From the NCBI GenBank assembly GCA_964016885.1, contig OZ024740.1:214520001-214584000 (forward strand): a stretch of 64,000 nucleotides of DNA, given 5' to 3'. The stretch comes from Eledone cirrhosa (lineage: Eukaryota). Position numbers and translations under genes: made by a program. Below are positions 1 to 56,401 of the stretch, one piece after another (within the stretch, counting starts at the first letter, position 1; every line of letters starts with the position of its first letter). Below the pieces are notes generated by a model, which was given only the letters and a program-made list of their open reading frames with translations, did not search any database and was not told the origin of the DNA.

Positions 1-2592
1 GCGCTCCCTCTCAGTCTTCGCTTGACCCAGGACTGCAGCTCCGTCAAGGAAACGAGCTGGGGAAATACGTGTCTAGCAAACGGCGACCACACCTGATCAC
101 CGTCGAGGAAGAGGTGGAGATGTCGTAGCCTGAGCGCGTGCCTGCGCATCATCAGCCACGGCATGCCCAGCCCTCCACGTAGCGGGTGTTGACAACAGAT
201 GGACCGCCTGACCATCGGAGCGCGTCCCTTCCACAAAAAGCGAAAGCGCAAACGCTCCAGCGCAGTCAGGCGAGGCTTAGGACAAGGCACCACGGTCAGG
301 CGGTAGCAGATGACAGACGCGATGTACGCGTTAGCCACCTCCGCTGTTGGACGGCATGGACCTGCCTCTCCAGGTGCCGAGCTGCAGGCCCACTGACTTT
401 TCCTGGTTGATCATTGCTCCTGTCACCGCTTCGTATTCTCTTAGTGTAGTGCCGATCGCCTCGATGTGTTTGGCGTTCGACACCACTACGGTGACATCGT
501 CCGCATATGCTGACACGGATCTTCCGCATCCTAGTTCGCGCGGGACGCCCCTCAACGTCTCCAGTTTGTGCAGTAATGGCTCGAAAGTCAATACGTACAA
601 GAGGGACGAGAGGGGACATCCTTGGCGGACCGAGAGCATGATGTTGAACGGTTCCGACAGGTGACCGTTCACTCTCACCACAGAGCAGATGTCGCTGTGC
701 ATGGCAGCGATCCAGCCTCTGAAGACGGGCCCAAAGCCAGCCGCCCTCAGGACTGCCGCTAGGTAACGATGGTCGACCCTATCGAAAGCTTTCGACTGAT
801 CTAAATTGATCAAGGACCCACCCGTGCCTGGTTCCCTAGCTACCCTCTCTACGATGTATCGCATGAGGTGGAGGTTGTTGTGGATGGATCTGTCGGGAAT
901 GGCGCACGTCTGCGCCTCTCTCACCAGACCACCAACGACAAGCGCAAACCTCTTTGCTAGCACCTTGGCCAAAATCTTTAACTCTGTGTTTAGCAGAGTT
1001 ATGGGCCTAAAATTATCTATGTTATCCCCCTTGTTCGGATCCTTTCTGAGCAGCGCCACAGCTATTCGGCTCACAGAGCTGGGAATTCTCCCGTTCTGTT
1101 GCCAGTTGCAGTAGACATCCGCCAAGAGGCCACCGAACAAGTCTGGCATCTGTACGTAAAGTTCATAGGGCAGACCATCCAAACCAGGCGATTTACCCCT
1201 TGTGCAGCTAGTCATTGCCTCCCGTACTTCAGCGGCTGTTATCGGCTTTTCGAAACACCCCGCCTCAGTGGCCGAGAGCCGCGGCAGACCGTCGAGGTAG
1301 ACACTAAAGTCCATCCTTCGATCCGGTCCGCCGCTGCCCCCGAACAACTGAGCGAAGTGTCGCTGAAAAGCTTCACACATTTGCCCGGGATCGAGTAACA
1401 TGCGCCCGTAGTGGTCCACCAAAGACCGGATCGTGGCTTTGTTGCCACGACGCGCCTCCGCCACTCGGGCCCATTGAACGGCTTTCGTCCCCTCGTGTCT
1501 GAGAGCACGCACCCTAGCTCTGACAACGCAGCCTTCCTGCTTTGCATTGAAGAATTGGTCAAGGGCCAATTTCGCCGCAAGTACGTCGGTAGCGATGCCT
1601 TTGCTAAGCGCCTCGTCTAATTTTCTATCTAATTCTCCCTCTGCTCTATTTTTCTCTATTGCTAAAGCCTTACTAAACCTAATGGAGTCTATTCTAATTG
1701 ATCTTTTCAGAGCAAACCACCACTTGTTGTTGACGATGGCCCCCGTCAACGCCCGCTTAACTAGTTCGCTAATCCGGTCTCTGTAGGCCTTGCGCGCTGG
1801 TAAGGACGCGTTTAGCTTCCAGTAGCCGGGTCCTCGTCTATGAAGCCTATCTAAGTCAAGCACACAGATCACGAATTTGTGGTCCGTGTAGCTGACTATC
1901 TTGAATTGTGGACAGCCTATGCTAGACCTATCTATTTCCCTACAAAATACTCTATCTAGATATGATCTGGATGACCCTATGCGATTTGTCCAAGTCCACA
2001 TTGGCACATTTGGGAAATCCAATCGGTACCTGTCAGACAGTTCAAAACGCCTGAGTAGGTTGGTGAGGTTCTTGCACTCTCCTCCCCTATCCGCTAATCC
2101 CACACAGTCCCAGCTTGCATCTAAGATCCCGTTCCAGTCGCCCACTAACACTAAAGAGCGGGACGTTCTAAGAAAGGTCTCCAGACGCCGGAAGAAATCA
2201 GGCCGCCTTGCTCCTGTCGGGGCATAGACGGCCACTAGCCTGAAAGCTTTCCCGTCTCCGCTGGTCACGTCCAGCACCACCAACTTACCTTCTGGGTCCA
2301 GGAAGATGGCCCGTATGGCGAGATCCAAACCTCTCCGAAAAAGCACAGCAACTCCTTCCCCCGATCCAGGACGGCTGGGAGATGCGTACACATCGTGGCC
2401 GCCGAAGATCGGTGCGAAGGCCCGTGCTTCGGAGATTCTGGTCTCGCTGAAGGCCACTACATCTATCTTTAGTGACCTGAGGTCGTTGAGCAGGTGGCCC
2501 TGCTTCCATGACGACCCCAAGCCACGCGCATTTATGCTGCCTATTCTTAGTGAGGTCATGTTGAATGGAGTGGAAAAGATGGGAAAGACCAC
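1..2592 (-). pseudogene. Tx1 ORF2 (APE endonuclease + reverse transcriptase), frameshifted near 340
   Basis: SINARG, VGDWN, SYLDR, TDH (APE); KSPGLDG, FRPITLLN, DQSKAFDRV, VRQGCPLS, YADD (RT); ATG at 2559. Confidence 0.92.
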
Positions 2593-4533
2593 TTACCTTA
2601 CTTCTCGTAGAGGAAGGATGGTTTCTCCATCCTTTTCACTGCTTGGAGACTCCTCCGGAAGGATGTCCTTATAAATCCTCCTGGAGAGTGCTTGTCGGAA
2701 GTCTCCGATGTCTTTGGGGAATTTTTGTTTTAGTGTCGTGTGCGTTTTCTGTGTGATGCGAGTGATTTGTATGTGTGGAGGTGGTGTGAACTTTTGGGTT
2801 GTTGTATAGTCCTTTTCTGTGATGCTGTTATTGTGTTGCATGTAGTGTAATAATTGGTTGTTGTTCAAATTTAATGCTGTGTAATGTGTATCGTTTTGGT
2901 TGTTTTGTTTTGTTTGCGTTTGTTGTGGGTTTGTTTCTGTTACGCTCTTTGGTGACTTTTGTGGTGTTGGTGATGGTGGTGTTGGGGTTAATGATGGCGA
3001 TGGTGTTGGTGTTTGTGGTGATGGGGTTGGTGATGCTGGTGTGGATGGTGGCATATCTGTCCTATCTTTTTTGTTTGATAGTTTATTTGTTTCCCTCTGT
3101 ATTTTGTTTTTTGGGGGGGAGGGAAGAGAATTTTTTCTTTTTTGGTTTCTTTTTTTCTTTTTTCCTGATACCGTTTCCCACTCCTCGTCGTCACAATCTG
3201 TCTCCAGCTGTGATAGGCCGGAGAGTGGAAAGTCCTCCACAGGCGTTGGTTTTGGTTGTGGCGTGGTGGATGGCGTAGGCGCTGGTGCTAGTTCTGGCGC
3301 GTCGGATGGTGGTGGTGTTGGTTTTGCTACTGTTGCTGGGGTTGTTGCTGTTACAGTTGCTTCTGTTGTTGCTGTTACAGTTGTTGCTGCTATTTCTGCT
3401 GCTGGTGGTGATGATGGTTGAGTCACTGGGGTGGGTAAGAGAGGTGGCCTCAACCTTTTAGCCTGAGGACAGAAAGCCCTTAGGTGGGTTCCTTCACCAT
3501 AAACGACACACCTAGGCCTTCTGCCTTCGACGATTACGGTGAGGTGGCTGCCGTCAGTGAGGTCTATTACCTCTGGGATCTCCTCAATGCTTTTTTGGTC
3601 CGCTTGGATCAGGAGCTCCATCCCAGATCCGAACCATTTCTCCTGCTTTTCTTTCGCTATTTCGATTATCTTGGTGTTGGGTTCGATGCCGGCGAGGACG
3701 GCAGCTATTAGCCAGGGCATTTCGATGGCCGGTGGAACGTGGGTCACGCTGATCTTCACGAGTCTCTGGCCACAATAGCTTGGGACGAGTGTGAAGTCGT
3801 CACTTCTTAATGGGGCCATGGAGTGTTCTCTGGCCTCCTGTGGTGTTTCAAAGAACACGTCCACGGTTCCATATTTCTGCCCACGTCTGAGGTATGTTTT
3901 TTGCCCACACATGTCCCAAAGCTTTTTGGATTTGGGACTTGGATGCCCGTTCCACTCGGCGCGATTTTATGCTAATCCTTTGATAAGATACGGTGAATAG
4001 GCGCCGATGCTCCATTTTATTAGTTGGGGGGTGAGGCTGACCCTGTACCCATCTTTCTTTACCATTATTTTGGCTTCTTCTAATTCCTCCTGAGTTACCT
4101 GGAATGCTTCGCACTGTTTTGCTACTCTGGCAAAACTCAGGGTGGTTTTCTTAATTTCATTGTTGCTGTTGGTGTTATCGTTATTTTTGTTATTGTTAAT
4201 TTTAGTTTCAGTTGTGGTGGTGGTGGCGTCAGTGGTGTTCGGTGTGGAAGAGTTCATTTTGGTTGAATTCATTTTGATATCACGAGTTAATTTATTTTTT
4301 TCTTTTGTTTCTGTTGTCGCTGTGTTGGTGGTGGGGGTGGCGGCTTTAACACCTGCAGTCATTGGTAATGGCGGGAAATGAATGTCTGCCTGAGACAAAT
4401 TTAAAATATTGCTACTGCTTATATTTTTAGTGTTGGCAAACGTAGTAATATTTACAATGGTGGTGTAGGTGTGAGGTGTTAGTTTGTGAGTTTGTGAGGA
4501 AGGTGTGACACTGAGTCGTCCATGATTTTTCAA
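2593..4533 (-). pseudogene. Tx1 ORF1 (gag-like nucleic-acid-binding protein), frameshift near 3960
   Basis: ORFs 3967-4533 and 2593-3912; degenerate knuckle CVVYGEGTHLRAFC; W..V..KKKKR basic motif; SFARVAK motif matches TFAQTVK of copy 2. Confidence 0.8.
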
Positions 4534-4736: not shown

Positions 4737-8475
<3,739 letters not shown>

Positions 8476-8477
8476 TA

Positions 8478-11400
8478 ATTTGTTTATGGGTGTTCGTATA
8501 CAGCGTGGTGATAATGCCACACAAGGGCCAAGTGGGATGGCGGATCCACAGATGGCTATGTAAACATACATTCGCCAATCCTCGATAAGAGTGTTTAAAT
8601 ATCGAACATAAACAGTTCGAATAACGGTGAAATGGAGACTAGAACGTCATGTGACAGACTCTCACCCAACAGGTGCCCCCTGGCTCAGCAGCAGGAACCT
8701 GACTGTCAACCAAATACTGCTGATGTTGGAGGAAGGAGAAGAAGGAAAGGGGCCAGAACCAACTGGACGAAAGAATTGAATAGAACTGTTATGCAATGCT
8801 ACCTGAAAAGTAACCCCAAGGAGAGGGGCTACAGGAGACGGATGCATAACATCTGGAACGAGATTGGTTTATTTAAATTAGATGAACAAAAATTGGCCAG
8901 GCAGGCTCGGGTAATAAGAACTAATGGGTGGATAAGCGAGCTGGAACTGGAGGAACTGAGCAGAGAGAATGGCTTGGAGATGGCGGGTGTAGTATGCCAG
9001 ACAAGCGAGCCGGTGGGAAATGAAGGTGAGGAGGTCCTGAGAACGGAGGAACCACCCGAAGCAGACAATGATCTGAGTACTGAGATAAATAATACCTGGA
9101 ACAGAGATACGGCCACTGAGGAGATGAATGCTGACGGGCTAGGACAAGATTCGGTTGACATCCTAAATTTAGTGGTAGATGAATTGAACAATGATAGTGG
9201 GAGACCTATGAACCTAAGATTTGTAGACAGGAAAAAGTTAAAAGAAACAACAGCTAAGGTAAACAAAGTCATCCCATACCTTGAGGCGAGGAGCCTTCAC
9301 CAGTGCAACAATATCCTCAGAGCAACAGCAAATACGGTGAGGAAACTACTTGGTATAAAAGCGAGAGGAAACAACAGACAAGAAAGAGCAGAGCCGTGGT
9401 GGAAGAAGCGACTGAGTGGGCAAATCGGGGTAATGAGAAATGACATAGGAAAGCTTGAGTCACTACTGAATGGGACACTAAAAAACATAGGCACTAAAAA
9501 TAGACTGGAAATAAAATACAAAACTAGGAGTAAAAAGCTAAATATTATCATAGAGGAATTGAAGCAACGCATTGTAGCAAAGAGTGCAAAAATCAGGCGA
9601 TACGAGAACAGAGTCAGTCAGTATAAACAGAACCGCATGTTCGACAACAACCAGAAGATGCTGTTTGGACAGCTTGAGGGCAAAGAAAGAGGCAGCGACT
9701 TGATCCCTGGGGCGGAGCAAACTAAAACATTCTGGAGAGGAATATGGGAGCAGGATGTTAGACACAATGCCCAGGCAGGGTGGATTGAGACAGTACAGAG
9801 GGAGATCGGTGAGCAGGCACAGCAACAGACTGATTTGAGTATCACAGTTGAAACTCTTAAGGGGCAAGCCAAAAAACTAACCAACTGGAAATCACCAGGC
9901 CCAGATGGTGTGCAGGGGTATTGGATTAAACATCTAACATCCCTCCACCCGAAGCTGACGGCCATGTTCAATGACTGCTTGGTGTCGGGTGAGGTGCCAG
10001 AGTGGTTGACAAAAGGTACCACAGTTCTGATAATGAAAGACCGAATCAAGGGTAATGATGCTACCAACTATAGACCTATCACATGTCTGCCCGTAATGTG
10101 GAAACTGTTGACGAGCATTGTGTCTGAGGAAATCTACCATCACCTCCACACAAACAACTTGTTACCGGACGAACAGAAAGGATGCCGAAAGAAGTCACGT
10201 GGTACAAAGGACCAGTTGCTTGTTGATAGGATGGTAATGGGGAATTGCAGGAGGATGATAACATCAGACAGTTGCTAGGCAGGAGTATGGGGTCCTGGGA
10301 GACAGAGTTGACATCAACTGGAGTATCCTTGGGAAGCGTGAAGATCAAGAGAGGTATCTTCCAGGGAGATAGCCTGTCCCCTCTGTTGTTTGTCCTTGCC
10401 CTGATGCCCTTGACCATTATGCTGCGAAAAGTGAGAGCAGGATACAAGTTGGGAAGGGGAGAGCTTACCATCAATCACCTCCTCTTCATGGACGATCTTA
10501 AGCTCTTCGGGAAAAGTGAGAAGGAGTTGGATGTGCTTGTTGACACTGTCCGTATTTTCAGCAGTGATATATGTATGCAGTTTGGCATTGGTAAATGTGG
10601 AGTCATTGTGATGAAGAGGGGTAGGTTGAGCAGAAGTAACGGGATCCAGATACCAACAGGTGAGATGATAAAGGAAATTGACTCTGAGGAAGGATACAAG
10701 TATTTGGGCGTTCTGGAGGCTGATGGCATAAAGAACAAAAAAATGAAGGAATTGTTAAGAACTGAATACATTCGGAGAGTAAGGAGCGTATTGAAGTCAC
10801 ATCTGAACAGCAGAAATGCCATAAGCGCAGTAAATTCCCGAGCTGTGTCTATTATTAGGTACAGTGCGGGAATTCTGAGATGGAATGTTGCCGAACAGAA
10901 AGAAATGGATAGGAAGACTAGGAAGCTATTGACTATCTACAACATGTTCCACAAGAGGAGTGATGTCGATAGACTCTACCTAAGGAGATCTGAGGGTGGA
11001 AGAGGTCTTATCAGCATAGAGGACTGTGTTCAGATGGAGAAAAACCACCTATACAAATACGTGACCTATAGTAAGGAGCCAATGCTCAGAACTGTACTGA
11101 AGGAGGGGACAGTAGGCCAGGGGATGTCCAGGGAGGAAATAACATCAAGGAGGAAGAGCAGCCTTAAGGGAAAACCACTTCATAGTACCTTCTTTGAGAA
11201 AACTGAATTTAGAGATCCACAGACATGGAACTGGTTGAGAAGAGGAGACCTCAAAAAGGCTACAGAAGGAATGCTAATGGCTGCGCTGGAGCAGGCCCTC
11301 AAAACGAAGTGGTTGAAGCACCATATCTACAAGGAGGAGGCTAGCCCACTGTGCAGGATCTGTGGAGAGAGAGAGGAGACTGTGGCTCACATTGTGTCCG

Positions 11401-11998
11401 AGTGTAAACACCTAGCCCAGACCCACTATAAGGGCTGGAGACACGATGTGATGGGCAGGGTGATCCACTGGCACCTGTGCAAAGTAAACAATCTACCACA
11501 TTCTGAGAAATGGTATGAGCATAGGCCAGAGGCGGTGATGGAGAACAATCAGGTGAAGGTGCTGTGGGATTTTAGGATACAGACGGACAAAAAACTGGAA
11601 CACAATAGACCTGACCTGGTGGTTGTGGACAAAGAAAAAAGATCGTGCCTGATTGTTGATGTGGCCTGCCCGTTCGACACGAGAGTGCAAGAGAAGGAGA
11701 GGGAGAAAATTAACCGATACCAGGACCTAAAGTGGGAGGTGAAAAGGATTTGGAACTGCCATGAAGTCAAAGTGATCCCGATTGTCATAGGCGCACTGGG
11801 GACTATCTCCAAAAGTTTCCAGGGATGGTTAAAGAAAATCGGCCCCTTCACGCTTTTTGGAACGCTTCAAAAGGCATGCTTGCTTGGAACAGGAAGAACC
11901 CTCCGATACGTCCTGAATATCTGAGGCTGCAGGTAGTGGCTTGATATTCAATCCAACGGACTTTCCAGTTAACCAACATCAATGACTGAGATTCAAGG
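8478..11998 (+). mobile_element. R4/Dong-clade LINE copy B, tandem to copy A, same family
   Basis: ORFs 8632-10278 and 10245-11924 colinear with copy A; about 100-nt deletion in RT; (TAA)n at 8429-8472 and 12000-12057. Confidence 0.93.
8632..11924 (+). pseudogene. RT-RLE polyprotein of R4/Dong copy B, one frameshifting deletion at about 10256
   Basis: FMDD; CCHC; PD..D..K endonuclease RPDLVVVD-DVACPFD-EKINRYQDL. Confidence 0.9.
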
Positions 11999-13019: not shown

Positions 13020-16000
13020 AATTTAAAAAAAACAACAAAAAGAAAACCCCGTGACCAAGAAATACCGGGATGGCGGCCGGCGGGGAATAGCCGTGTCTCT
13101 AGGGGAGAACGACCCCTCTAGTCTTGGTTGACACTCGTTCTAGAAGTGGTAACACGAAATGATTACCCCTTGGCGGATAAGGATAAAACGCGACAAAATA
13201 AAGTAAATGTCTAATGATAAAATCTCATACCGGATCGGCCGTCACCCGGGTAAAAAAGGGCCGTGTCCCTCAGAGAGGAACCAGACTGGGGTCGAAAAAT
13301 CAGCTAATGGTTCAAACCTTCCCATCACTTCGGAGCTGGAGACCTCCCATAACCGGAATACTCCTACTGTTGGCCCTCCATGCTCACCACCAAGAAATCC
13401 AAAGAAAAAGAGAGAAAAATGGTCAAGGGAAGATAATAAAGAAGTCCTTGAGGCTTTCTACACTGCCATGTACTACCCATCAAATACATCGAATACAGAA
13501 CAGACATATATCAACTGGAAAAAGAAACATCCCGAAAACAGAGGCTATATTGACAGTAAAAAACTAGCCAATATACGAAGAAATATTGTAAGAAAAAAGT
13601 TACTAACTGATATAGAAATTTATCAGATCAAGCTATTAGCACAAAGTCAGCGAAGGGAAAATGAAACATGTGTCAGTGAAAACGAGGTAAACTGTAACAC
13701 TTCGAACCCCAGGGTTGGGGCGGAATCACTGGCAACAGAACAAATTAAAGAAAGGATCGAAAAAGTGGAGGGAGTGCATGCTCAGGATGAAACTCCAAAT
13801 GAAAATAATGAGATCGTAAATGATAAAGAAATGAATGAGAATGAACTTGCCAACTTGAAGGATGAAATTATGATCGAATGGATGAAAATGAAAGAATCTG
13901 ACATGGGGCAACGAGACACCCTCCCTAAGATCCAGAACTCCAAACAGAACCAAAAGATAATACACAAGACTAACACAATTCTCAAAAACATTATCATCAC
14001 AAACAAACTAAACATGACTGATTTAAATCATCTCTACTATGCATCGGCGAAAGTCACCACTCACTTATGTGGAGTTAAGATGAAAAAACAAAGGAATTCC
14101 CACAAGAAATCTACTTGGCAAGAGAACATCAATCGCCAAATAAACCTTCTCCGATCTGACATAGAAATTTTAACAAACTATAAAGTAGGTGAACATGTTA
14201 AACAAACTAAACTTAGTAAATTGAAGAGAAAGTACAGTATAAAATCAACAAGTGACATAGACATGCTGATAGAAATAATCAAGCAAAAAGTGTAGGCCAA
14301 AGCTGCTCGTATAAGGCGCTTTGAAAAACGATCTAGATTCTATAAGGACAATAATATGTTCAAAAACAACCAAAGAAACTTCTACAGAAAAATTGGTAAG
14401 TCAACAATAACTGCTAAATCAATACCACCCAAGGAGGAAGTGCAAGAATTCTGGGAAAAGATCTGGGCCGAAGAAAAAGTTCATAACATACATGCCCCAT
14501 GGATAGACAGACAAATGAAAGATACAGCTCACCTTGAGGAACAAATATGGGAAAATATAACAGTTGAACAGTTGCGCTTGGCTCTAAGAAAAACCGGCAA
14601 ATGAAAATCCCCAGGAAAAGACAAAATACAAAATTTTTGGATAAATGCCTTCACAGAGTCTCATGAGCTGTTAGCCCAACTTTACAATGAAATAATTAAG
14701 GAGCCAGAAAAGATACCATCATGGCTAGTTAACGGCATTACATTCCTGCTTCCGAAGAATGATGAGACAAACAATCCCAAAAATTACAGACCGATAACTT
14801 GCTTGACCACAATGTATAAAATTTTAACATCAGTCCTAACTGAATACACATATGACCACCTGATAACAAATGATCTATTTCCCATTGAGCAGAAAGGGTG
14901 TACACGAGGCTCATATGGCTGTAAGGATCACCTTTTGGTTAACAAAATGATACTGGAAGATTGTCATAATAGACACAAAAATCTATCGATTGCTTGGATA
15001 GATTATAAAAAAGCATTCGATAGTTTGCCACACAGTTGGATTGAAAAATGTTTAGAGATTTTCAAAATATCCCCCGTTGTCAGGAGGTTTTTGTCATTCA
15101 GTATGAAGACATGGAAAACGACACTCCTTTTGAATAGTGAAACAAAATCACTGGAAGCTGGAGAAGTTAATATTAATTGTGGAATTTTTCAGGGTGACTC
15201 TTTATCACCGCTTTTATTCTGCATCGCACTTATACCATTAAGTAAAATGCTCAATGAAACAAAACATGGATATAAAGTCTATGACAAAACCATTAATCAC
15301 TTGTTCTACATGGATGACCTGAAACTATTTGCAAAAAATGATGAACAATTGCAAGGGCTATTATCCACTGTGGAGCAGTTCAGTGATGACATTAAAATGG
15401 AGTTTGGACTAGATAAATGCGCCAAAGCAACGTTCACCAGAGGAAAGCTGCTGAAGAGTTCAGGCATTAATCTTGATCGGGGGAACGTGATAAGGGAACT
15501 TGATCAAGAAAAACTTACAAATATCTAGGTGTTTGTGAAGGAGACGGAATCAAGCACTCGACAATGAGGGAAAGGATAAGGAAGGAATGTTACCGCAGAG
15601 TAAGAGCAATCTTAAGAACGGAATTGAATGCAAGGAATAGGATCGATGCCATAAACACGCTTGCCATACCAATAGTAACCTACAGTTACAATGTCATCAA
15701 CTGGTCAAGCACAGAGATCCGTAGGCTCGATACAAAAATTCGAAAATTCTTAACCATGCACAGAATGCATCACCCTAAGGTAGATATAGATAGAATATAT
15801 CTCCCTAGGAAAGAAGGAGGGCGTGGGTTAATCCAGTTAGACATTGCGTTGAAAACTGAAACAATTGGATTATCTACATATCTAAGGGAATCACATGATC
15901 GGAAAATCAAACTCGTTTTGAAACACGAAAGCATCAAAAGATCATATTCCATTACAAAAGATGCACAAAGATACAGTAATGGACTACAAATTTCAGAAGT

Positions 16001-17000
16001 CCCATTTACTGCTGAAATGGAAAACACAGAAAAAGCAAAGCAGGTAAAAGTAACTGCAAAGAAAGAACTGCTACAGAAACTGGCTAAGAAATGGCAAGAA
16101 AAGCCTCTGTATGGAAAATATCCAGAGCGAGCTAACAATCCTGATGTTGACAAAACTTTAACCCATCAGTGGTTGGCATCCTCTGGACTGAAATCGGAGA
16201 CTGAAGGACTGATTATATCAGCACAAGATCAGTGTCTGCCAACAAAAAATTACCAAGCCAACATAATAAAAAATGGATGCAGCCCATTATGCCGTGTATG
16301 CAAAAAACAACCAGAGACCATTGACCATATAATTTCAATGTGCAATCCTATAGCTCCAACCGAATACCTAAACAGGCATGACAGAGCAGCACAATACATG
16401 CATTGGATAATGTGTAAGCATTTTGACCTGCCCCATCAAAAGAATTGGTGGGAGCATCAACCACCTCCCATACTTGAAAAAGATCACATCTCAATCTTGT
16501 GGAACTTTAGCATCCAAACAGACCGAAAAATAGATGCAAATAGACCTGATATAATATTGAAGGACTTTAAAAAGAGGGTATGCCTGCTAATTGATATGTC
16601 TGTTCCAATAGACAAGAATGTATCTATAAAAACATTTGAAAAATTGAGCAAGTATAAGGACCTGGAGATAGAAATTGGAAAAATGTGGAAATTGAGAACT
16701 AAAACAATACCAGTGGTTGTAGGCGCTCTGGGAATGATACCTAAGGGGTCTAATGATTACTTATCGCAAATCCCAGGAAACCCGCGTATAGGAGAAATAC
16801 AAAAGATAGTACTAATGGGAACTGCCCATATACTAAGGAAGATTCTGTCAATATAAGTACATTACATGTCTAAACACTAAAGATGCATGTGTGTGTATGT
16901 ATGTTCTTTCCTGAACATGGCGGACCTTGTTGTCTCTTGAGGTCACTGGTTGTGACTTGGTGATAACTCGTATGAACATAAAGCAAGATAAATGCAACTG
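13020..17000 (+). mobile_element. R4/Dong-clade LINE copy C, second family, near full-length
   Basis: ORF 13207-16856 with stops at 14293 and 14602 and a frameshift near 15515; YMDD, CRVC..H..C, RHD, RPDII; ends in (TAA)n 17001-17021. Confidence 0.92.
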
Positions 17001-32548: not shown

Positions 32549-32746
32549 GATATAGACGTGAATTACTTCGCTCCGGATTTTTACGGATTATTGTCAAAAA
32601 AACTGTGAGTTCATTGATCAATTTAATAGCATTGTTTAGTTTAACCCCTTGCCTGGGCCGTCAGACGTTGAGTCAACTAATTTTCGCCCCTTTCTGGGGC
32701 GAAATTTTCATTTTCATCTCAAAACTGTGTAGACTTGGTATCAACA

Positions 32747-34538
32747 ATGGATGCCATTTCCACCTCGCACACTGTTGTGAGTGCCACGCCCGCTAAGAAA
32801 AGTGGTGGAGGGAAGGTAGGAGTACAAAGCTTGCAGCCTTCCCCCCTCGCATTATCGAAAAACGTTGAAAATATTGAAACTACGAAACCAAACCCGGTAA
32901 ATAATACCAGCACCAACAACAAGAACAATGACAATAACACCACAACCAACAACTGCAACAATAGCAACACCAAGGAAAACATGAACAATATTACCAACAG
33001 TGACAGCAACAAAAAAGACAGCACCAAAACAACATTCGCACAGACTGTAAAATAAAACGAACTATACACGCCAATAGACATAACAAATGCTAAACAACTA
33101 TTACAAGACGCAAAACAATTCGTGACTTTTGGCGAAAACGGTGCTTTTAGCATCAATTCTCCACAGGAATTACGTAGAGAGGCTGTCCTGAAAACTGTGG
33201 TTTTCAGGACAATATCGAACGAAACAAGAAAACCAGCTCAATTATCACAAAATGAAATTGAGCTGGTTCTAAAAGATGCAATGAAGGACTTAACCTTCAT
33301 ACAAAAAGGTAAACTGTTTGGTAGAATTTCGGTGCTAATGAACAACCAGTCAACAGCTCAAAAGAACTCGGTATCACCCATTGTGTCCCCCCGCTTCACC
33401 TTTTTCCCCACATACAGGGGAAAAAGGACACAAAGAATAAAAATAATGAGTATCACACCAAATGTAAATATTTGGTGGATACTATGTGGAATCATTGACT
33501 TTGACGAAGACAAGATAATTTCAATAGGAAAGTCCTCCGGAGGTGTATTTGGTGGGACCAGCGTAGAAGTTCTGGTGCAAATGAGCCCAGAACGAATAGC
33601 GAATATCCCACAACGCGTGCTTCTGGACGGGCTAACTTATATAAACATTTCAGTGGAGAGAAGGCGGCCGTCATGTTACCACTGCTTAAGCAGGGGTCAC
33701 CTGAGGGCTGCCTGTCCTCAATTAACGAGTAAAAAAAAAAGGCTCTTCTGCCAACCCCGAACACAACAACACAACCACCACCACCACCACAACAACAACA
33801 ACCACAACAACACGGAAAAATAACAACACAAAACACTGTTCCACCCAACCCCTCCCCACCTAAAACAAATACAAAAGCAACCACAACAAAACCCCAAAAT
33901 ATACCCCTCCCCAACAACACGGAAGAGGACTCCGTATCAACGTCACCCAGTGACGACGAGGGAGAACCCTTTCAACAGGTGAAAAGGAAAAAAAAAGGCA
34001 CCACATTAACAAAAATGCCACAAACACACAACCACTAGCACAAACAGAACAAACATCACAAATAAAAAAAAACACCCCTCCCCAAAACATAACACATACT
34101 GCAAAACGCAAACACGCACAAGAACAACAAACAAAAACAAACACAACACAACAAAAACTCTATACATACATTAACAAGAACAATAAAACGTTGATGAAAG
34201 CGATAGAAAATAACCCTTCGGTGGAAACCGAAGGGATCACTTTCACCTACGCAGCGAACAAACCGCACCTAATGATGATTAGGGTCCCAACGGAAAATTA
34301 TGTAACTTTGAAAAAGAACCATCCAATGCATGTGGGGACCAACTGCACCAAACCACTTAACCACGTCCTATTGAGATATTTCCCCACCCCCACACCAGAC
34401 ACCCACACCCCACCAAACGCCCTAATCCCACCACACACTGATGTCCTCACCCCACCACAAACCACCACCCCACCAAACAACCCTTCCAACACCCCCATGA
34501 AAATTGTGCAGCCTGGTCCCCAGGAGACGAAGAGGTAA
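32747..34538 (+). pseudogene. Tx1 ORF1 with CCHC zinc knuckle; stop at 33053 and later frameshifts
   Basis: CYHCLSRGHLRAAC; Asn/Thr- and Pro-rich linkers as in copy 1. Confidence 0.8.
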
Positions 34539-34573
34539 GTAATTTCCTTCCTCTTCCTTTTTAACTCTTCAGC

Positions 34574-37500
34574 ACCAACAAGGCCAATATAAGAGTTGGA
34601 TGTGTGAATGCACGCGGCTTGGGGATGTCCTGTAAACAGGGCAAACTCTTAAATGACCTCAGGTCGCACAGAGTGGATGTAATGGTTATTTGCGAGTCCA
34701 GGATCAGCAGCGGCGAGCGCCAACTGGCCCCCATCTTCGACGACTTTGAGATCGACGCATCTCTCTGTCAGCCGAGGGGTGAGGGTGGGGTTGTCGTTCT
34801 GCTGCGAAAGTACCTGGGTCTTGCCACACAGAAGGTACACCTGGACCCGGAGGGTCGACTGGTGGTTTTAGACGTCGGCAGTGGTGAAGGTGGAGCTTTC
34901 AGGCTGGTGGCAGCGTATGCCCCATCTGGGACACCGCGACCGGACTTCTTCCGACGCCTGGAGAATTTCCTGGGAACGTCTCGCTCCTTCCTTTTAGTGG
35001 GGGACTGGAATGGTATCCTGGATGCACGTTGGGACTATGTAGGGGCATGTCCCGATAGAGGGGGGTGTAACAGCCTCAAACGATTAATCGGCCGATTTGA
35101 TCTGGCCGATAGATATCGACTAGATTTTCCGACTGTGCCACGGTGGACGTGGAGTAATCGCAGCGGAACATCTAGGTCGTACCTAGATAGGTTCCTAGTT
35201 AGAAATAAGGATAGGGACATATTAAGCTGTCCACGAATGTTCATGGTTGACTATTCGGATCACAAGTTGGTGACCGGAGTGGTCAACCTTGATAGAACTC
35301 ATAGACAGGGACCCGGTTACTGGAAACTAAACTTGTCTTTACCGACAAACAAAGCTTACAATAAGCGGATTAGCACACTAGTTAAGCAGCATTTGACGGG
35401 GGCAATTGTCAACAACAGGTGGTGGGGCTCTCTCAAGAGAGAAATTAGAATAGAATCGATAGGTTTTAGTCGACAATTAGCATCAGATAGGAATAGAACT
35501 GAAAGGGAATTAACAAATTGAGGAGAAGAGGCGATTAGGAGTGGCAACGTGGCCGGCGTGCTGGCGTCAAGAACGGCCCTAGACCAGTTCTTTGATGCGA
35601 AGCACGAGGGCTGCATTGTCAGGAGTAAAATACGTGCTCTGGGTAACGAGGGAGCCAAAGCTGTTAGCTGGGCCCGAGTGACAGAGGCAAAAAGTGGAAA
35701 CAAGTCCACGATTCGGTCTTTGAAGGACCAGGATGGACGCGTGATCCTTGAACCTAAGCGGATGAGTGCGGCCTTTTAACGGCGCTTTGCACAACTGTTC
35801 GGGAGGGGCGGCGGGCCGGGTGGGGCCATGGATTTCGGTCCATACCTCGACGGTCTGGCGCGGCTCTCGGAAGGGGAGGCGAAGTCCTACGAGGGGCCGA
35901 TTTCAGCCGCTGAAATAGGGGAAGCGTTGAGCCAATGCGGCAAACGCAAATCTCCGGGTCTCGATGGTCTACTATACGAACTTTATGTAGCGATGCCGGG
36001 CTTGTTCTCCGGTCTCCTGGAGGCGGTCTACTGCAACAGGCAACAGAACGGGAGAATTCCCAGTTCTGTGACCAAGGGCGTAGTCACGCTGGTGAGGAAG
36101 GACGAGAACAAGGGGGATGACATAGATAACTTCAGGCCCATAACTCTGCTAAACACAGAGTTAAAGATTTTGGCCAAGGTGTTAGCGAAGAGGTTGGCGC
36201 TTGTCGTCGGGAACCTGGTGGGAGAAGCGCAGACATGCGCAATCTCGTCCAGGTCCATACACGACAACCTCCACCTCATGCGATACATCGTAGAGAGGGT
36301 AGGGAACGAACCCGGCTTTGGTGGGGCCCTGATCAACTTGGATGAATCTAAGGCGTTCGATAGGGTTGACCATCGGTACCTGGATGCGGTGCTCGCGGCG
36401 GCAGGCTTCGGACCCGTTTTCAGGGACTGGATTGCTACAATGCACAACAGCAACACCTGCTCGAGGGTCAAGGTGAACGGCTACCTCTCGGAGCCGTTCC
36501 AAATCACGCGATCCATTCGACAGGGATGCCCTCTCTCCTCCCTCCTGTATGTGCTGGCTCTCGAGCCACTACTGCGGAAGCTGGAGCTGATGCAGGGCAT
36601 CCCCTTGGAACCGGGATTGCGGAAAGCGGTGTCGGCCTACGCCGATGACGTGACAGTAATGGTGTCGTGCGCCTCGGAAATCGGGCAGATCAGCACCTTA
36701 CTGGAGGAATATGAAAGGTTCACAGGAGCCAAGCTGAACCGGGACAAGTCCGTCGGTTTGCAACTCGGGACGTGGAGGGGCAAAACGATGCCCTCCGACG
36801 GCATCGTCGGACGCTGGACGGAGGGACCGGTGAAGCTGCTCGGGGTCTGGTTCGGACCGGACCTCCAGGTGGAGAAAAACTGGGACGAGGTAACGGGCAA
36901 GGTCTTTGCACTCGCCCAGAAGTGGGTCGAGTGCAAACTATCCCTGAAAGGTCGAACGGAGGTGGCGAACGCTTATATAGCGTCCGTCATCTACTACCGC
37001 TTGACCGTCGTGCCTTGCCCAGAGAAAACACTCGCCAAAATGAAGCGCGCGCTCTTCCGATTTCTTTGGAAGAAGCGGGCTCCTTTGGTGAGAAGATCCA
37101 TCTGCTGTCAACACCCTTCGAACGGAGGGCTGGGGATGCCGTGGCTGACGATGCGTATACACGCATTAAGGCTACGGCACCTCCAGGTATTCCTCACCGG
37201 TCAGCCGGTGTGGGCCCTGTTTGTGAGGCGAGCCTTTCCGAGACTCGTCTCACTCACCGAGCTGCAATCCTGGGTCAAGCAAAGACCGAGAAAAGTGGGC
37301 GACTGGCACATTGAATGTGCCCAGGCGCTCACGGCCCTCTGGCAAGCGGATCCAGCAATCAGTGGAGACTCAACCTCAACATTCTATAGAGGGTTGGTGC
37401 GCAGTAAGTGCAACGACGCTCTCGGAGAGGCTCTGGGCATGGAGGAAGACGAGCTGGCCAGTTTGTTCGGTAGGACGTTTGGCCCGGGACCGATGGACAA

Positions 37501-38020
37501 CTTCCAAAAGTCCCTGGCTTGGCAATGTTACCGAGGAGCTCTACCCGTTCGGGACAAGCTCTACAGACACGGGCGCCCGGGTAGGGACCCCTCGAAGAAG
37601 ATCTGTCAGAGATGCGTGCGTGACGAGGAAACCGTCGCACACGCATTCGTACACTGCCCGGGCGTTGCTGACCTGTGGGGCTATGTAGAACGACTACTGT
37701 CGCGGGTGGCACCAATCCGGTTGACCACCGAGAACATTGTCACGATCAAACCGCCTCCCCCTTTCAAAAACGAAGGAGAGGCGGTTTTCCTCTGTGTGAT
37801 AGCCATGGCGAAATAAGTTGTATGGTGGACAAGGTTGAAAGGGCTGAGGTCAGACACCTTTCTCTCCGGCCAACAACTGGTCTTTTTTTTCAAGCACCAC
37901 TTTAGAAGAAGGATCAGAATGGAGAGAGAGGTGCTCTACCCCAGCAAGTTTTATGAAAGATGGGTGAAAGTAGCGAGAATGGCCCGAGTGAATGGGCCTT
38001 CTCTCTATATCAGCCTGTAG
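34574..38020 (+). pseudogene. Tx1 ORF2 (APE-RT-zinc finger); stops at 35519, 35777, 37814
   Basis: CVNARG, VGDWN, SDH, FRPITLLN, RQGCPLS, YADD, CQRC..ET..H...C. Confidence 0.92.
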
Positions 38021-39324
38021 GTGATAGAGGAGAAGAATGAGAAGAGGAAGGAAGTACCCGCTCTTTGTGCTCCTGAAGAGGAGGGTTGCACATTTTTTCG
38101 GGGGTGTGTGCGACCCATGTCAACGCCCCTCCCTATTGAGGACATCGATTGTTAAATTTAATTTGTTATATGTTTTTTACACGTCTTTTTAAATGTATGT
38201 AAACTCCCCCCTTTGTATTTGTCCCAATCTTTGATGCCCTGGTGGCAAATAAATAGAAATATATATCTACTGCACAACACTCTCCCTCGTTCCCTCTCAC
38301 TCTATCCATCACTACCAAACTCTCCCGTTTCGATATCAATTATCACCAAACTATCACCCTCTTTATATATATACCATACAGCACTCTTTCCAAATCTCCC
38401 TCTCTATATCAATTAACACCAAACTCCCCCCTTTCTGTATCTACTACACGGAACTATTTTCTAATTCCCCTCTATATATCAATTAGCATCAAACTCTCTC
38501 CCTTTCTATGTCTACTAAACAGAACTCTCTTCCAATCCCCCTCTCTATATCAATTAACGCTAAACTCTCTCCCTCTCTATATCTACAACATAGAACTAAC
38601 TCTCTTCCAGTACCCTTTTCTATATCAATAAACATCAATCTCTCCCCCTCTCTATATCTAATATACAACATACTCTCCCAACCTTCCTCTCTATATCAAT
38701 TATTACCAAAATCTTCCCCTCTCTATATCTATATCTATATCTATATCTTTCTCTCCTCTCTCTACACAACATGTACATAAATTGTAGCACATATACAAAT
38801 AGATGTGTGTTTTGGTAGTTTTGGGAGAAAAATATAATTATTGAGGAGAGGGGTGGGGGGTCCCCTGGCCACCCCAGTTCCACCGCCCATGTGTTGGCGA
38901 AGTCATTAGTACCGTTCACTGGTTCTCTCGTGGTATATGTGGTTTAGGTGAAGGGGGTCAGTGCTTCGACAACTGCACGTCCAACAACTTTACTTTATAT
39001 GTGTTTGTAATATCTATATATGGTAGCTGTTGATAACATGTTCATGAGATATATATTTTCGTACAGCTGTAGCTCATTTAGTGCTGCTTCTGTTAACCAG
39101 ATTCTCGACCTAATGATTTCTGATAATGTAAAGAAATTGACTTGTGATAGTAGCTATGACACAAACATTATATAACATTTCATTCCTTACTTTATATACC
39201 ATGCTGTCTCCACCAAAGACACAGTGACAAACGAAATAGGGACACATTTTGACACTGTGTTAGTATAAGTCACTGTGTTTGTGGAATACTAGCAGTCGCC
39301 CCTACATATCACTTTCCGCTCTCT

Positions 39325-48765: not shown

Positions 48766-49738
48766 AAGGCGTGTGGCTGAGTGGTTAGAGAATTGGATTC
48801 ACAATCTTGAGATTGTGAGTTCGATTCCTGGACTGGTCGATGCGTTATGTCCTTGAGCAAGACACTTTATTTCACGTTGCTCCTTCTACCTGGAGTTGCC
48901 ACCTATAGATAGTATTAGCAACTGGAATGACCGACGAAAACACTATTTCCTCGGTCAGATTTGACGAAAGTCGATCGATATATATATATATATATATATA
49001 AATGAAGTATTTCCATAGGAAAGGTAAAGTAAGAGAGAGTGCTCTCTGTAGGCTATATAGCTTTTTAGTTATGTAATAAACAACATAAGATAATTACTTC
49101 GTTTACCAAAGGTTTCACGAAGTTTACCAAAGGTAGATGGCGTAGGACAGAACACAGGAGAGGCACAAAAAACAAAGAAAAGAACCCCCAGTCACTGACC
49201 TCTTGGTCACAGAATGTGTGACGAAAGAACTTTGACAATATATAAACAACCATCTGGTTGTGGAACCAACCAACCAACCGGAAATTTATAAATTCCTAAA
49301 TTTATAAATTTATTATAATAAATTGAAGTGAAATAAGCTGGTGCGTGTGTTTCTTATTGGCAACATGACCCTCCCAAAGTATAACAATATCGGTTTCAAC
49401 ACACGTTTTCAGATAAAGAATCTTGCTTAACAAATTCAGAAACGAAATATATATATATATATATACGATATTAATAAATGGAAACTATATTTATAAAACT
49501 ATATTTATTTCATTATACATATTTCAGGGATACCACATTAAACCATGGTATGCCTTCATCAGACAAAATACAATATATAACAGTTTTACAAATAGGTTTG
49601 ACGTACCCTTTAAAATACAACCATTACTTTTGGAGGCTGTCTGGATAGTGATTTGTTTATATAATAAGTCATAGTGTTAAGCACAATTATAAAAAGACGG
49701 AGAGAAAGAAAAAAGACGGAGAGAGAGAAAAGAACAAA

Positions 49739-51606
49739 GACAAAACTAACAACCTTTATGGAGTACAAAAGGACATGTATAACGACCTTATATTGAAAGA
49801 ACTAAGGAAAAAGTACAAGGTAGCAAGTAAGGATGAACTAGAAAAAATGAATACAGATGCATCTTGTATAATGCATGAATTAGACATTGAGAATAAAACA
49901 CAACCCTTCATGCCTAGGAAACCCAAGATCAATATGAAGGATCACAAAAGAAACTTTGAAAATGATTTACCAGTCAGATTAATTGCACCATCTAAATCTG
50001 ACCTGGGCAAACTTAGCAAAAATATTCTAGACAGGGTAATACAACAAATTATAAACTTACCTAATTTATCTTACTTAAAATTATGGAAAGGGACTAGTGA
50101 GGTTATTGATTGGTTTAAAGAAATTAAATATAACTGTAATAATAAGTTTATTCAGCTGAATATTGCTAACTACTATTCATCTATCACTCCTAATCTACTG
50201 AATAAGGCACTAAATTACGCATTTAAACATACTGACCTAACTAGCAATGAAATGCACATTATATTATCGGCAAGGAAAACATTGATAGAATTTAATAACC
50301 AACTCTGGACTAGGGCAGATAGAAATAATAATTTCGACATAACTATGGGATCATCAGACTCAGCTCAGGTAACGGACCTTAATTTATAATTAATTCGCTA
50401 CATAGAAAAATACCAGGTGTAACCGGAGGATTATATCGTGATGACATGCTTTTACTTATAGAAGATAATAGCTGTGAACTAAATAGAAAAAGAAAACAAA
50501 TTATACAAATTTTTAATTACCTTAATCTAAAAATAGAAATAGAGAATAACCATAGAATAGTCAATTTTCTTGATGTAACACTAAATCTCAACACATGTCT
50601 TCATTATCCATTTCACAAACTAAATGAGAACTTGAATTATGTCAACTTTAACTCTAATCACTCCAGATCTGTTAAAAATACTATAGTGAACTCTGTTCAA
50701 GAACGAATTTCAAGAATTTCATCTAATAAAAATATATTTGATGAAAAAGCGCAGTATTACAACGAAGCATTAGCTAGAGCTGGATATAGAAATAAAATTA
50801 AATACATCGATAATAATAATAAGCAAACTAACCAAAATAATAACAATTTCAATTACGGTAACAACTTTAATAACTATAATAGAAAACATTACAATAATTC
50901 CAAAAGCCGAAAAAGAAATAGAACTAGAAATATATTATGGTTTGCTCCCCCGTTCTCACTAAATATTAAAACCCCTATTGCTAAACTATTCTTTAAAGCT
51001 CTTGACACACGCTTCCCTAGAACACATAAATATCACTCAATTTTTAATAGACACACTATAAAATTAACTTACTCGTCCACCAAAAATTTAGCACAAAATA
51101 TTAATAGAATTAATAATAGGAATTTAAAACCTAACCAAAATACCAATAATAACCCAAACAATATTCAATTAAATAACTGTAACTGTAGAAATAAATCTAA
51201 CTATCCGTTAAGTAACAACTGCTTAGCTAAAAATGTAGTGTACAATTGTAATGTTAAAACTAATTTAAATTCATTTAACTATGTTGGTGCCACCTCTACA
51301 GAATTTAAATTTCGCTTCAATAATCATAAGAATTCTTTCACAGATCCAAACAAAAAATCTTCAACTTCGCTATCTAGCCTACTATGGGACCTAAATCGAG
51401 ATAATATTAAGTATTCGTTGAGTTGGAATATTATTTCATAAGCTACTCCATTTAATTCCTCTTCAGAAAATTGTGATCTTTGTATTGAAGAAATATTCTT
51501 TATATTAAAGTTCAAAAATTCCCTTAATCTGAGGAACAATTTATTCAGTTGCTGCAGACATAGATTGAACTCAACGTTTAAATATAAATATAAATTTAAA
51601 ATGTAG
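49739..51606 (+). pseudogene. PLE reverse transcriptase + GIY-YIG endonuclease
   Basis: DKTNNLY, PVRLI, ITMGS, GLYRDD, NFLDVTL; CNCR..PL..C, VVY..YVG, CDLC, LN.R, CRH; frameshift about 50390, stop 51439. Confidence 0.9.
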
Positions 51607-55083: not shown

Positions 55084-55931
55084 AGTCTGGCTAGATGGCA
55101 AATTTCGTAAATATTTGGTTATAAACCAGTTTTCTAATGATAAACATCGTCCTTTACTCCGCGTATCATAAAAAAAACTGGTTTTCTGGTTTTCAACGAA
55201 ATTTTATTGAACTTGCTATCTATTCAGACATTTTCTCTAGTTGAAGTTTTTGGTGTAATGGAAGTGCCAGATATGCAGATCATTCCTCCAATCACCAAAG
55301 ACTGTATTTGTAGATGATTCTGTCAGTTCACTTACTTTTGGTTATTTCTTTGTATAGTAAAAGTTGTCAAAATAAAAATGTGTGTTTTTTTTTTATTACC
55401 ATAAGTAATAATAACTGTCAACTACTTCATAGAAATGTTCGTTTTGCGAAAAGAATATGTCAAACCTAAAAAAAAAAGTAAAAGCCATATTGATCATTTT
55501 GAACACGTTGGATATGTTGTTTCTTTACACTTTTCCACAGCAAGGTTTCTTTAAGATTAATACTTCATGAATCTATAAAATAAAAACACATAACACCCTT
55601 AGAGTTTTTATTCTTTTCCTTAATATCCTATTTTTATTTACAAGTTTTATCAGAACTACACCGTGTCCGATTTATTCTCCTGTAGTTGTTTATATAGAAG
55701 AAGAAAAAAAGTATCGTGTGACATATGAATTGTCATTTCAGATATATTTCCTAACATATTTATCAGTTATCACATGTGTTAGCAAGTTATTTGATATCTA
55801 CTGTACAAATCCCTTTAAAAGAAGATACTTCACAAAAAGCAGAGATAACTGTAAATCGTAAGTCTAGAGGTTCAATAACATTTCGCTAAAGCATTTTTAT
55901 GGCATTGCACTACAGCAAAATGTTATTCTAG

Positions 55932-56278
55932 CCATCTGGCTGATCTAACTACTACAGCAAATATGGTTACAACCCATCTGGCTGATCTAACTACTACAGC
56001 AAATATGGTTACAACCCATCTGGCTGGTCTAACTACTACAGCAAATATGGTTACAACCCATCTGGCTGGTCTAACTACTACAGCAAATATGGTTACAACC
56101 CATCTGGCTGGTCTAACTACTACAGCAAATATGGTTACAACCCATCTGGCTGATCTAACTACTACAGCAAATATGGTTACAACCCATCTGGCTGGTCTAA
56201 CTACTACAGCAAATATGGTTACAACCCATCTGGCTGGTCTAACTACTACAGCAAATATGGTTACAACCCATCTGGCTC
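55932..56278. repeat. 42-bp minisatellite, about 8 copies
   Basis: CCATCTGGCTG(A/G)TCTAACTACTACAGCAAATATGGTTACAAC. Confidence 0.97.
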
Positions 56279-56399
56279 ACAGTTATAGATTCTCTAATAT
56301 TCTCTCTAGAAGTTCGGTCATGGATAATTTGGTAAATAGTAACTTGTTTTTGTTTATGTGTAGACATGTATGTGTATACACACAAACAATATATGTGTG

Positions 56400-56401
56400 A
56401 G

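Follow-up and report, generated by a model that had tools for sequence, protein, structure and literature searches.

A 64,000-nt stretch of the Eledone cirrhosa genome (assembly GCA_964016885.1, contig OZ024740.1, positions 214,520,001–214,584,000 of the forward strand), hereafter the window, carries two decayed long interspersed nuclear elements (LINEs), copy 1 and copy 2, each with two open reading frames (ORFs), and in both the ORF1 stop codon lies within the same octamer, AG|GTAAGT, a consensus splice donor. ORF2 of both copies encodes an APE endonuclease and a reverse transcriptase (RT), detected as Pfam Exo_endo_phos and RVT_1, with zf-RVT additionally matched in copy 2. Neither ORF1 has a Pfam match; a CCHC knuckle is visible in the translation of copy 2, the zinc knuckle of copy 1 is degenerate, and the Atlas neighbours of ORF1 are CCHC proteins. 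Between the copies, ORF2 identity is about 65% at the protein level and 71% at the DNA level, and their nucleotide sequences align only from the ORF2 start onwards. Judged by sequence, the window copies and a third lineage described below (the array family) are retrotransposons of the non-LTR kind (LTR, long terminal repeat) within the L1 superfamily (L1/Tx1). The narrower Tx1 label comes from an earlier note on this DNA and is taken over as an assumption.

In both copies the octamer overlaps the last ORF1 codon, an AGG for arginine, and the TAA that follows it (Table 1). It conforms to the AG|GTRAGT consensus with strong U1 complementarity by which a U2-type 5′ splice site is recognized and is the best U1 match among the 211 GT sites of copy 1 and the 284 of copy 2, the score being a simple match count against a U1 consensus and not a trained model. 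The earlier note had described the donor of copy 1, the pyrimidine tract behind it, the ATG of ORF2, an in-frame AG 51 nt away (a weak AAG) and the single stop that separates the two ORFs in one shared frame; all of these are present, the AAG having 8 pyrimidines in 14 positions, as is the same donor at the ORF1 stop of copy 2, where ORF1 and ORF2 are in different frames and the ORF2 frame is closed by a second TAA. Its statement that the two ORF1 C-termini cannot otherwise be aligned by eye agrees with the DNA alignment, which starts at ORF2, but a weak domain is common to both upstream of the last 20–50 residues. Window-wide, the octamer is not enriched (5 octamers versus 2.70 expected; 16/100 shuffles reach 5), whereas its position is beyond chance, with a probability of about 3e-4 of finding the octamer within 12 nt of a given stop (a 25-nt window), or about 1e-3 given a TAA stop, and it is repeated in the third lineage. 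No full donor is present at the stops of three other, unrelated elements of the window, although GT follows one of these stops. A second AG|GTAAGT, spanning Glu-Gly-Lys codons, lies inside ORF2 of copy 1 (2283–2290, minus strand); it is absent from copy 2 and is probably a chance occurrence.

Table 1. Features of the two LINE copies (window coordinates)
Feature	Position	Strand	Remarks
Copy 1 ORF1	2593..4523	-	decayed; start likely near 4523, with a frameshift; internal stop 3969–3967; degenerate zinc knuckle; long low-complexity middle
Copy 1 AG|GTAAGT	2591..2598	-	donor G 2596; overlaps Arg codon AGG 2598–2596 and TAA stop 2595–2593
Copy 1 predicted hairpin	2569..2640	-	core arms 2637–2619 and 2591–2573; encloses ORF1 stop and donor; inverted repeat I1
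Copy 1 pyrimidine tract	2561..2590	-	within the 33-nt ORF1–ORF2 spacer; 3′ arm of the predicted hairpin
Copy 1 ORF2 start codon	2557..2559	-	same place as the starts of P0007, P0009, P0011 and P0013
Copy 1 first downstream AGs	2537..2547	-	end at 2546, 2541 and 2537; all weak, all in ORF2 coding sequence after the ATG
Copy 1 ORF2	1..2559	-	APE endonuclease and RT; frameshift near 344; 3′ end outside the window
Copy 2 GTGAGT	32605..32610	+	5′ untranslated region, after an A run; resembles the 5′-proximal donor-like site of the array family; unproven
Copy 2 ORF1	32747..34538	+	decayed, several stops or shifts; CCHC knuckle
Copy 2 AG|GTAAGT	34533..34540	+	donor G 34535; overlaps Arg codon and TAA 34536–34538 of ORF1; AGG-TAA as in copy 1
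Copy 2 predicted pairing of tract back onto donor	arms 34529–34542 and 34543–34556	+	fold prediction
Copy 2 pyrimidine tract	34541..34572	+	closes in a strong CAG, 34570–34572, just 38 nt past the donor
Copy 2 AAG	34580..34582	+	at the position of the ORF2 start codon in copy 1 and relatives; presumably a decayed start codon
Copy 2 ORF2	34580..38020	+	endonuclease, RT, zf-RVT; three internal stops, one shared frame
Copy 2 candidate distal acceptor	37994..38013	+	12/14 pyrimidines; CAG ending at 38013; in donor phase; two codons ahead of the ORF2 stop; unproven
Copy 2 polyadenylation hexamer	38248..38253	+	near the 3′ end of the element

The third lineage was found by scanning genome contigs with an endonuclease alignment. 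The scan returned 66 loci, comprising 64 head-to-tail array copies (L001–L063 and L065), a decayed solo copy (L064) from another metagenome-assembled genome (MAG) record, and L066, which was set aside as unrelated (a weak match of 27% identity, without the junction). The array copies lie on contigs CAXXMW010000002-18, one record titled Arenicella MAG. These contigs consist largely of intact-looking head-to-tail LINE units of 6.4–6.9 kb, up to about ten per contig, and are therefore probably DNA of a eukaryotic host rather than of a bacterium. ORF2 of the array family is about 44% identical to that of copy 1 and its ORF1 is homologous (E 3e-13), whereas identity to the window copies at fourfold-degenerate sites is 0.25–0.36, against a random expectation of 0.25–0.26. 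AAG|GTAAGT is nevertheless found at the ORF1/ORF2 junction in 64/64 array loci (64/65 counting L064). Here the ORF1 stop lies one base ahead of the donor, the two ORFs are in different frames, and the ORF2 ATG follows 7 nt past the hexamer in all 64 loci, with neither an AG nor a pyrimidine tract between. The six intron-side bases are invariant across 17 haplotypes, with +7 in three states; since the junction region is conserved generally, this invariance within the family adds little. In seven array representatives the donor ranks among the top 4–6 of 331–354 GT sites by U1 match, and further AG|GTAAGT octamers inside ORF1 of some copies are unconserved.

Thus all three lineages for which DNA is available have the donor octamer at the ORF1 stop or one base past it. 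Because it recurs there across near-random synonymous divergence, the motif is, by sequence comparison, under selection, in line with what the earlier note had proposed. Nor does the motif arise as a side effect of coding, since it persists while the stop shifts (inside the motif in the window copies, ahead of it in the array family). The evidence for selection is this match across lineages. Neutral survival between the window copies would have a probability of about 0.002–0.008 for the eight bases, or 0.02–0.05 for the five outside the stop, to be multiplied by a further factor of about 3e-4 to 1e-3 for the third lineage, which is saturated. Chance or neutral inheritance could appeal to the lack of window-wide enrichment, to the unconserved occurrences in ORF2 of copy 1 and in some array ORF1s and to the number of lineages seen, which is only three; against these low probabilities, we consider it hardly credible.

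Further donor-like sites are present in the array family. A second one lies 3,495 nt on from the first, at or up to 14 nt past the ORF2 stop; in two subfamilies and in L064, ORF2 ends in Arg-TAA within this site, just as ORF1 does in the window copies. Among 82 occurrences, in which overlapping loci are counted repeatedly, the site reads GTAAGT in 42 and GTGAGT in 40, seven having A at −1. Since a change between GTAAGT and GTGAGT is tolerated by donors, this variation supports a donor reading. Behind it come a pyrimidine tract, which varies, and, 33–48 nt on, an AG; together with the site these form a module kept in 82/82 matched occurrences, although the search pattern is blind to units without the module (a separate count of the ORF2-end signature gave 80). 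Of the 58 array loci with enough flank, 57 have a third donor-like site close to the 5′ end of the unit. The ORF2 stop of copy 2 has only a weak donor match. Just ahead of the ORF2-end donor there is also a conserved hairpin of six pairs with a UUCG or UUAG loop (L021:6460–6475 and equivalents), the UUAG form making an earlier ORF2 stop.

The protein domains of the array family agree with those of the window copies. ORF2 of L029 and of L021 matches Exo_endo_phos and RVT_1, with zf-RVT under its cut-off, and ORF2 of L029 aligns with LINE-1 ORF2p (E 5.5e-74, residues 4–863) better than with R2 (9e-24), the groups compared being those with solved structures. The zf-CCHC profile is matched in ORF1 of L001, L029, P0062 and P0076. 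Many Tx1 families are specific for targets such as RNA genes or microsatellites; here, no Rfam match was obtained in seven loci or the window, and the relatives form head-to-tail arrays. Such arrays recall telomeric or self-targeting retrotransposons, and at L037:1808 a 5′-truncated unit is joined straight to the 3′ end of the previous one, consistent with target-primed insertion into the array. The subfamilies (L001–L062) share 89–94% identity over ORF2 and only about 66–74% over the 5′ untranslated region (UTR) and the first part of ORF1, some units being mosaic, which suggests that the 5′ half is swapped between units or evolves fast.

A small conserved domain without a Pfam match ends ORF1 in the window copies (2650–2900, minus strand; 34150–34400, plus strand) and in some ten homologues from the database, and a more distant version of it does so in the array family; a search with this domain returned one hit, already known. 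Among the best 150 of 229 ORF1 homologues, eight, mostly fragments, have a terminal Arg. Of the ten homologues that possess the C-terminal domain, two finish in Gly-Lys or Gly-Lys-Ser, which would allow the motif in a different phase (background 0.006 per position; a post hoc observation), two are of the array type, in which it would be invisible, and six give no clear sign.

Folding predictions place the donors of the window copies in secondary structure. The hairpin of copy 1 (z −3.47, 0/200 shuffles) is equalled by 2 of 58 background windows and the fold of copy 2 (z −1.3 to −2.4) by 25 of 71; in either copy the predicted partner of the pyrimidine tract is a purine-rich stretch that lies at the donor or immediately ahead of it. 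The array family has no such junction fold (z 0.18 and 0.73).

What is observed is the sequence of the site, its position, its conservation and the separate start of ORF2. To account for these, we tentatively favour, while stopping short of confidence, the reading that the motif is a U1-bound 5′ splice site at which splicing would yield an ORF1-only mRNA and non-splicing would keep the full-length RNA. By binding the donor at the end of ORF1, the U1 small nuclear ribonucleoprotein would split the RNA of the element into two pools. Where the donor is used, splicing to some downstream acceptor would remove ORF2, or at least its start, the latter being the sole splice outcome that appears possible in the array family, and leave an mRNA for ORF1 alone. 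The exon junction of this mRNA would lie at the stop codon, a place where a junction does not trigger nonsense decay, and the mRNA should thereby escape it. Where the donor is bound and left unused, the bicistronic RNA would survive whole, ORF2 being started at its own ATG, and only this unspliced RNA would be copied back into the genome, in cis, so that the site would be retained there. Candidate acceptors are found in the array family just past ORF2 and about 200 nt further, in addition to the distal one of copy 2 (Table 1). In an extended form, the lineage would set its ORF1:ORF2 ratio through the spliceosome, with a second U1 site at the ORF2 end, ahead of the 3′ UTR acceptor in the array family, or the hairpin over the donor in the window copies, throttling the splice and sparing full-length RNA; we offer this extension as speculation and think it unlikely as it stands.

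Several results weigh against use of the motif as a splice donor. L064, the decayed solo copy, has lost the GT. None of the ten ORF1 homologues with the C-terminal domain has a terminal Arg, and the motif may therefore not be universal in the group. No acceptor is common to the three lineages above synonymous-shuffle nulls, the best window being matched by 50/200 shuffles. The closest strong AG of copy 2 follows the donor by just 38 nt and precedes the ORF2 start. No spliced or inserted ORF1-only genomic copy is present in 39 array intervals between neighbouring units, obtained from 52 of the 64 loci (the others being cut by contig ends or alone); 38 of the intervals measure 6,376–6,862 nt, and one, with a 5′-truncated unit, 5,308. 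Absence of spliced genomic copies is expected under cis preference, yet it lends no support. The donor is mostly base-paired in the predicted folds of both window copies. Neither AATAAA nor ATTAAA occurs in ORF2 downstream of the donor in any of nine elements (9/9, with 0.6–1.1 expected in each), unlike the layout of EVD, a Ty1/Copia element of Arabidopsis. Finally, a donor in the 5′ UTR of human L1 is described as conserved for a RUNX3 site (PMC5860796).

A close rival retains U1 and dispenses with splicing: U1 would dock wherever a non-coding stretch begins (5′ UTR, ORF1 end and ORF2 end) and suppress cryptic polyadenylation, aid elongation or control nuclear retention of the intronless RNA. 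Such docking explains the repeated sites and the missing shared acceptor at least as well as splicing does, although we hold it to be somewhat unlikely. It fits the three donor-like sites per array unit, the lack of a conserved acceptor across lineages and the constant presence of the ORF2-end module, which is evidently not lost by splicing of the template RNA, as well as the polyadenylation hexamers that lie 196–937 nt upstream of the donor in 8/9 elements. These hexamers, however, are as frequent as chance predicts for an A-rich ORF1 and none lies downstream in ORF2, copy 2 has at best a weak donor at its ORF2 end, and the module count comes from a pattern unable to match units that lack the module. 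Conservation may also have nothing to do with U1 and reflect a DNA-binding site, an RNA–protein site, or a multi-frame stop cassette for termination and reinitiation at the ORF2 ATG, possibly with a hairpin. At the junction, 14 bases are identical between copy 1 and some array subfamilies, more than the donor itself accounts for, a TAA in the ORF2 frame lies shortly upstream of the ORF2 start in every lineage, the ORF1–ORF2 spacers are short (33 nt in copy 1, 41 nt in copy 2 and 14 nt in the array family), copy 1 has its hairpin, and the factor site of human L1 offers a precedent (PMC5860796). Stops alone, however, need neither AG|GT nor G-T at +5/+6, the hairpin is absent from the array family, no overlapping stop-start of the SART1 type is present, and at +3 the ORF2-end site alternates between A and G, in keeping with donor rules; we therefore rate a function independent of U1 as quite unlikely.

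Two further readings would join the ORFs into one protein. The earlier note had pointed to a 51-nt in-frame removal, and more broadly a mini-intron of 38–60 nt could fuse ORF1 to ORF2 as a Gag-Pol-like product: copy 1 has in-frame AGs 51 and 60 nt from the donor, and copy 2, which has no ATG, has them at 38 nt (the strong one) and 59 nt. As a general mechanism, this fails in the array family, where the stop precedes the donor and the 7 nt before the ORF2 ATG hold no AG (64/64). Moreover, the acceptors of copy 1 are weak and lie after an ordinary ORF2 start at 2559, and a spliced RNA encoding ORF2 in cis should have been copied back intronless, yet both copies keep the intron. Among the best 150 of the 229 ORF1 homologues none matches an APE endonuclease profile, and none of 16 ORF2 hits bears an ORF1-like extension (four of 666–2120 aa and 12 of 176–562 aa; lengths of 563–665 aa and above 2120 aa were not searched). 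We regard such a fusion as improbable. Readthrough of the stop, also raised earlier, fits only copy 1 of the three lineages, where the ORFs share a frame with one stop between them inside the predicted hairpin. Editing is common in cephalopods, and adenosine-to-inosine editing of both adenosines of the UAA within that hairpin could produce an ORF1–ORF2 fusion. In copy 2 and the array family, however, the frames differ and a further TAA stands in the ORF2 frame; one lineage of three in frame is the chance rate, and the donor would be left unexplained, all of which makes readthrough highly improbable and discounts it as a general rule. Two other candidates were rejected. A calicivirus-type UGGGA follows the donor in only 9 of 17 array haplotypes, positioned past the stop, and a TCT-type initiator or trans-splice acceptor ahead of ORF2 finds no pyrimidine tract there in the array family.

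Other elements are found in the window. Three further LINE copies, each with a single ORF and two of them adjacent, lie at 5151–11924 and 13207–16856 (plus strand) and encode an RT followed by a Cys/His motif and a nuclease-like C-terminus; from this pattern we take them to be Hero/NeSL-like. An element at 49652–51441 (plus strand), with an RT and a GIY-YIG-like end, is presumably Penelope-like and carries AG|GTAAGT on its antisense strand at 50055–50062. At 55879–56400 (plus strand), a tandem repeat of ~42 nt in an open frame encodes a repeated 14-residue peptide.

A LINE requires ORF1 protein in large excess over ORF2 protein, and the known ways of achieving this, reinitiation and stop-start coupling, act in translation. 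The presence of a donor at the end of ORF1 in families so deeply diverged points to a solution at the level of RNA processing, one that has until now been described for LTR elements, Copia among them. The feature is real and selected, in a known kind of element, and would be a new form of retroelement splice-site control if functional. It gives one exact base at which junction reads can be sought and mutations made, and such elements would scatter strong donors through host introns. If the ORF2-end site or the hairpin does throttle splicing, a LINE would have converged on the balanced splicing of retroviruses. No report of a conserved donor at a LINE ORF1 stop was found in the literature searched, in which coverage of subscription papers and Repbase reports is thin.

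Partial likenesses exist among other mobile elements and viruses. The major splice donor of human immunodeficiency virus 1 (HIV-1) suppresses the poly(A) site of the 5′ LTR, so that a U1 site acts on a poly(A) site lying upstream of it, and retention of the third intron of the P element places a stop codon at the start of a regulated intron. HIV-1 is, however, a retrovirus and the P element a DNA transposon, and neither must keep its site through LINE-type copying of its own RNA. Among LINEs, reviews of ORF2 expression describe UAAUG stop-start coupling in SART1 and termination-reinitiation in L1 (PMC3894237, PMC5972666); the word ‘splice’ is absent from the accessible part of one of them. As in those elements, ORF2 here probably starts by reinitiation shortly past the ORF1 stop, whereas the UAAUG of SART1 overlaps and the elements studied here have spacers in which the conserved feature is a donor consensus. 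Two libraries could help to show how widely the motif is distributed, a bivalve L1-Tx1 consensus library (PMC10294476) and an Octopus vulgaris library on Zenodo (PMC13282606). Human L1, a member of the same superfamily, has conserved functional donors, spliced integrated retrotransposed elements (SpIREs) and a cis preference of its proteins for their own RNA, but its donors lie in the 5′ UTR, one being kept as part of the RUNX3 site, and its 63-nt inter-ORF spacer is described in the accessible text only as having two in-frame stops (PMC5860796). The closest parallel is EVD, in which a conserved U1 site after gag is proposed both to generate a gag-only mRNA and to guard the full-length RNA (PMC5580714). 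Both systems thus have a conserved canonical U1 site that ends the structural gene of a retroelement. EVD, however, belongs to the LTR elements and has a single ORF; its acceptor is conserved, pol holds a poly(A) site and the stop is created by splicing (PMC5580714), whereas the LINEs described here, known from DNA alone and with neither a conserved acceptor nor a downstream hexamer found, have two ORFs, with their own ORF1 stop and ORF2 start.

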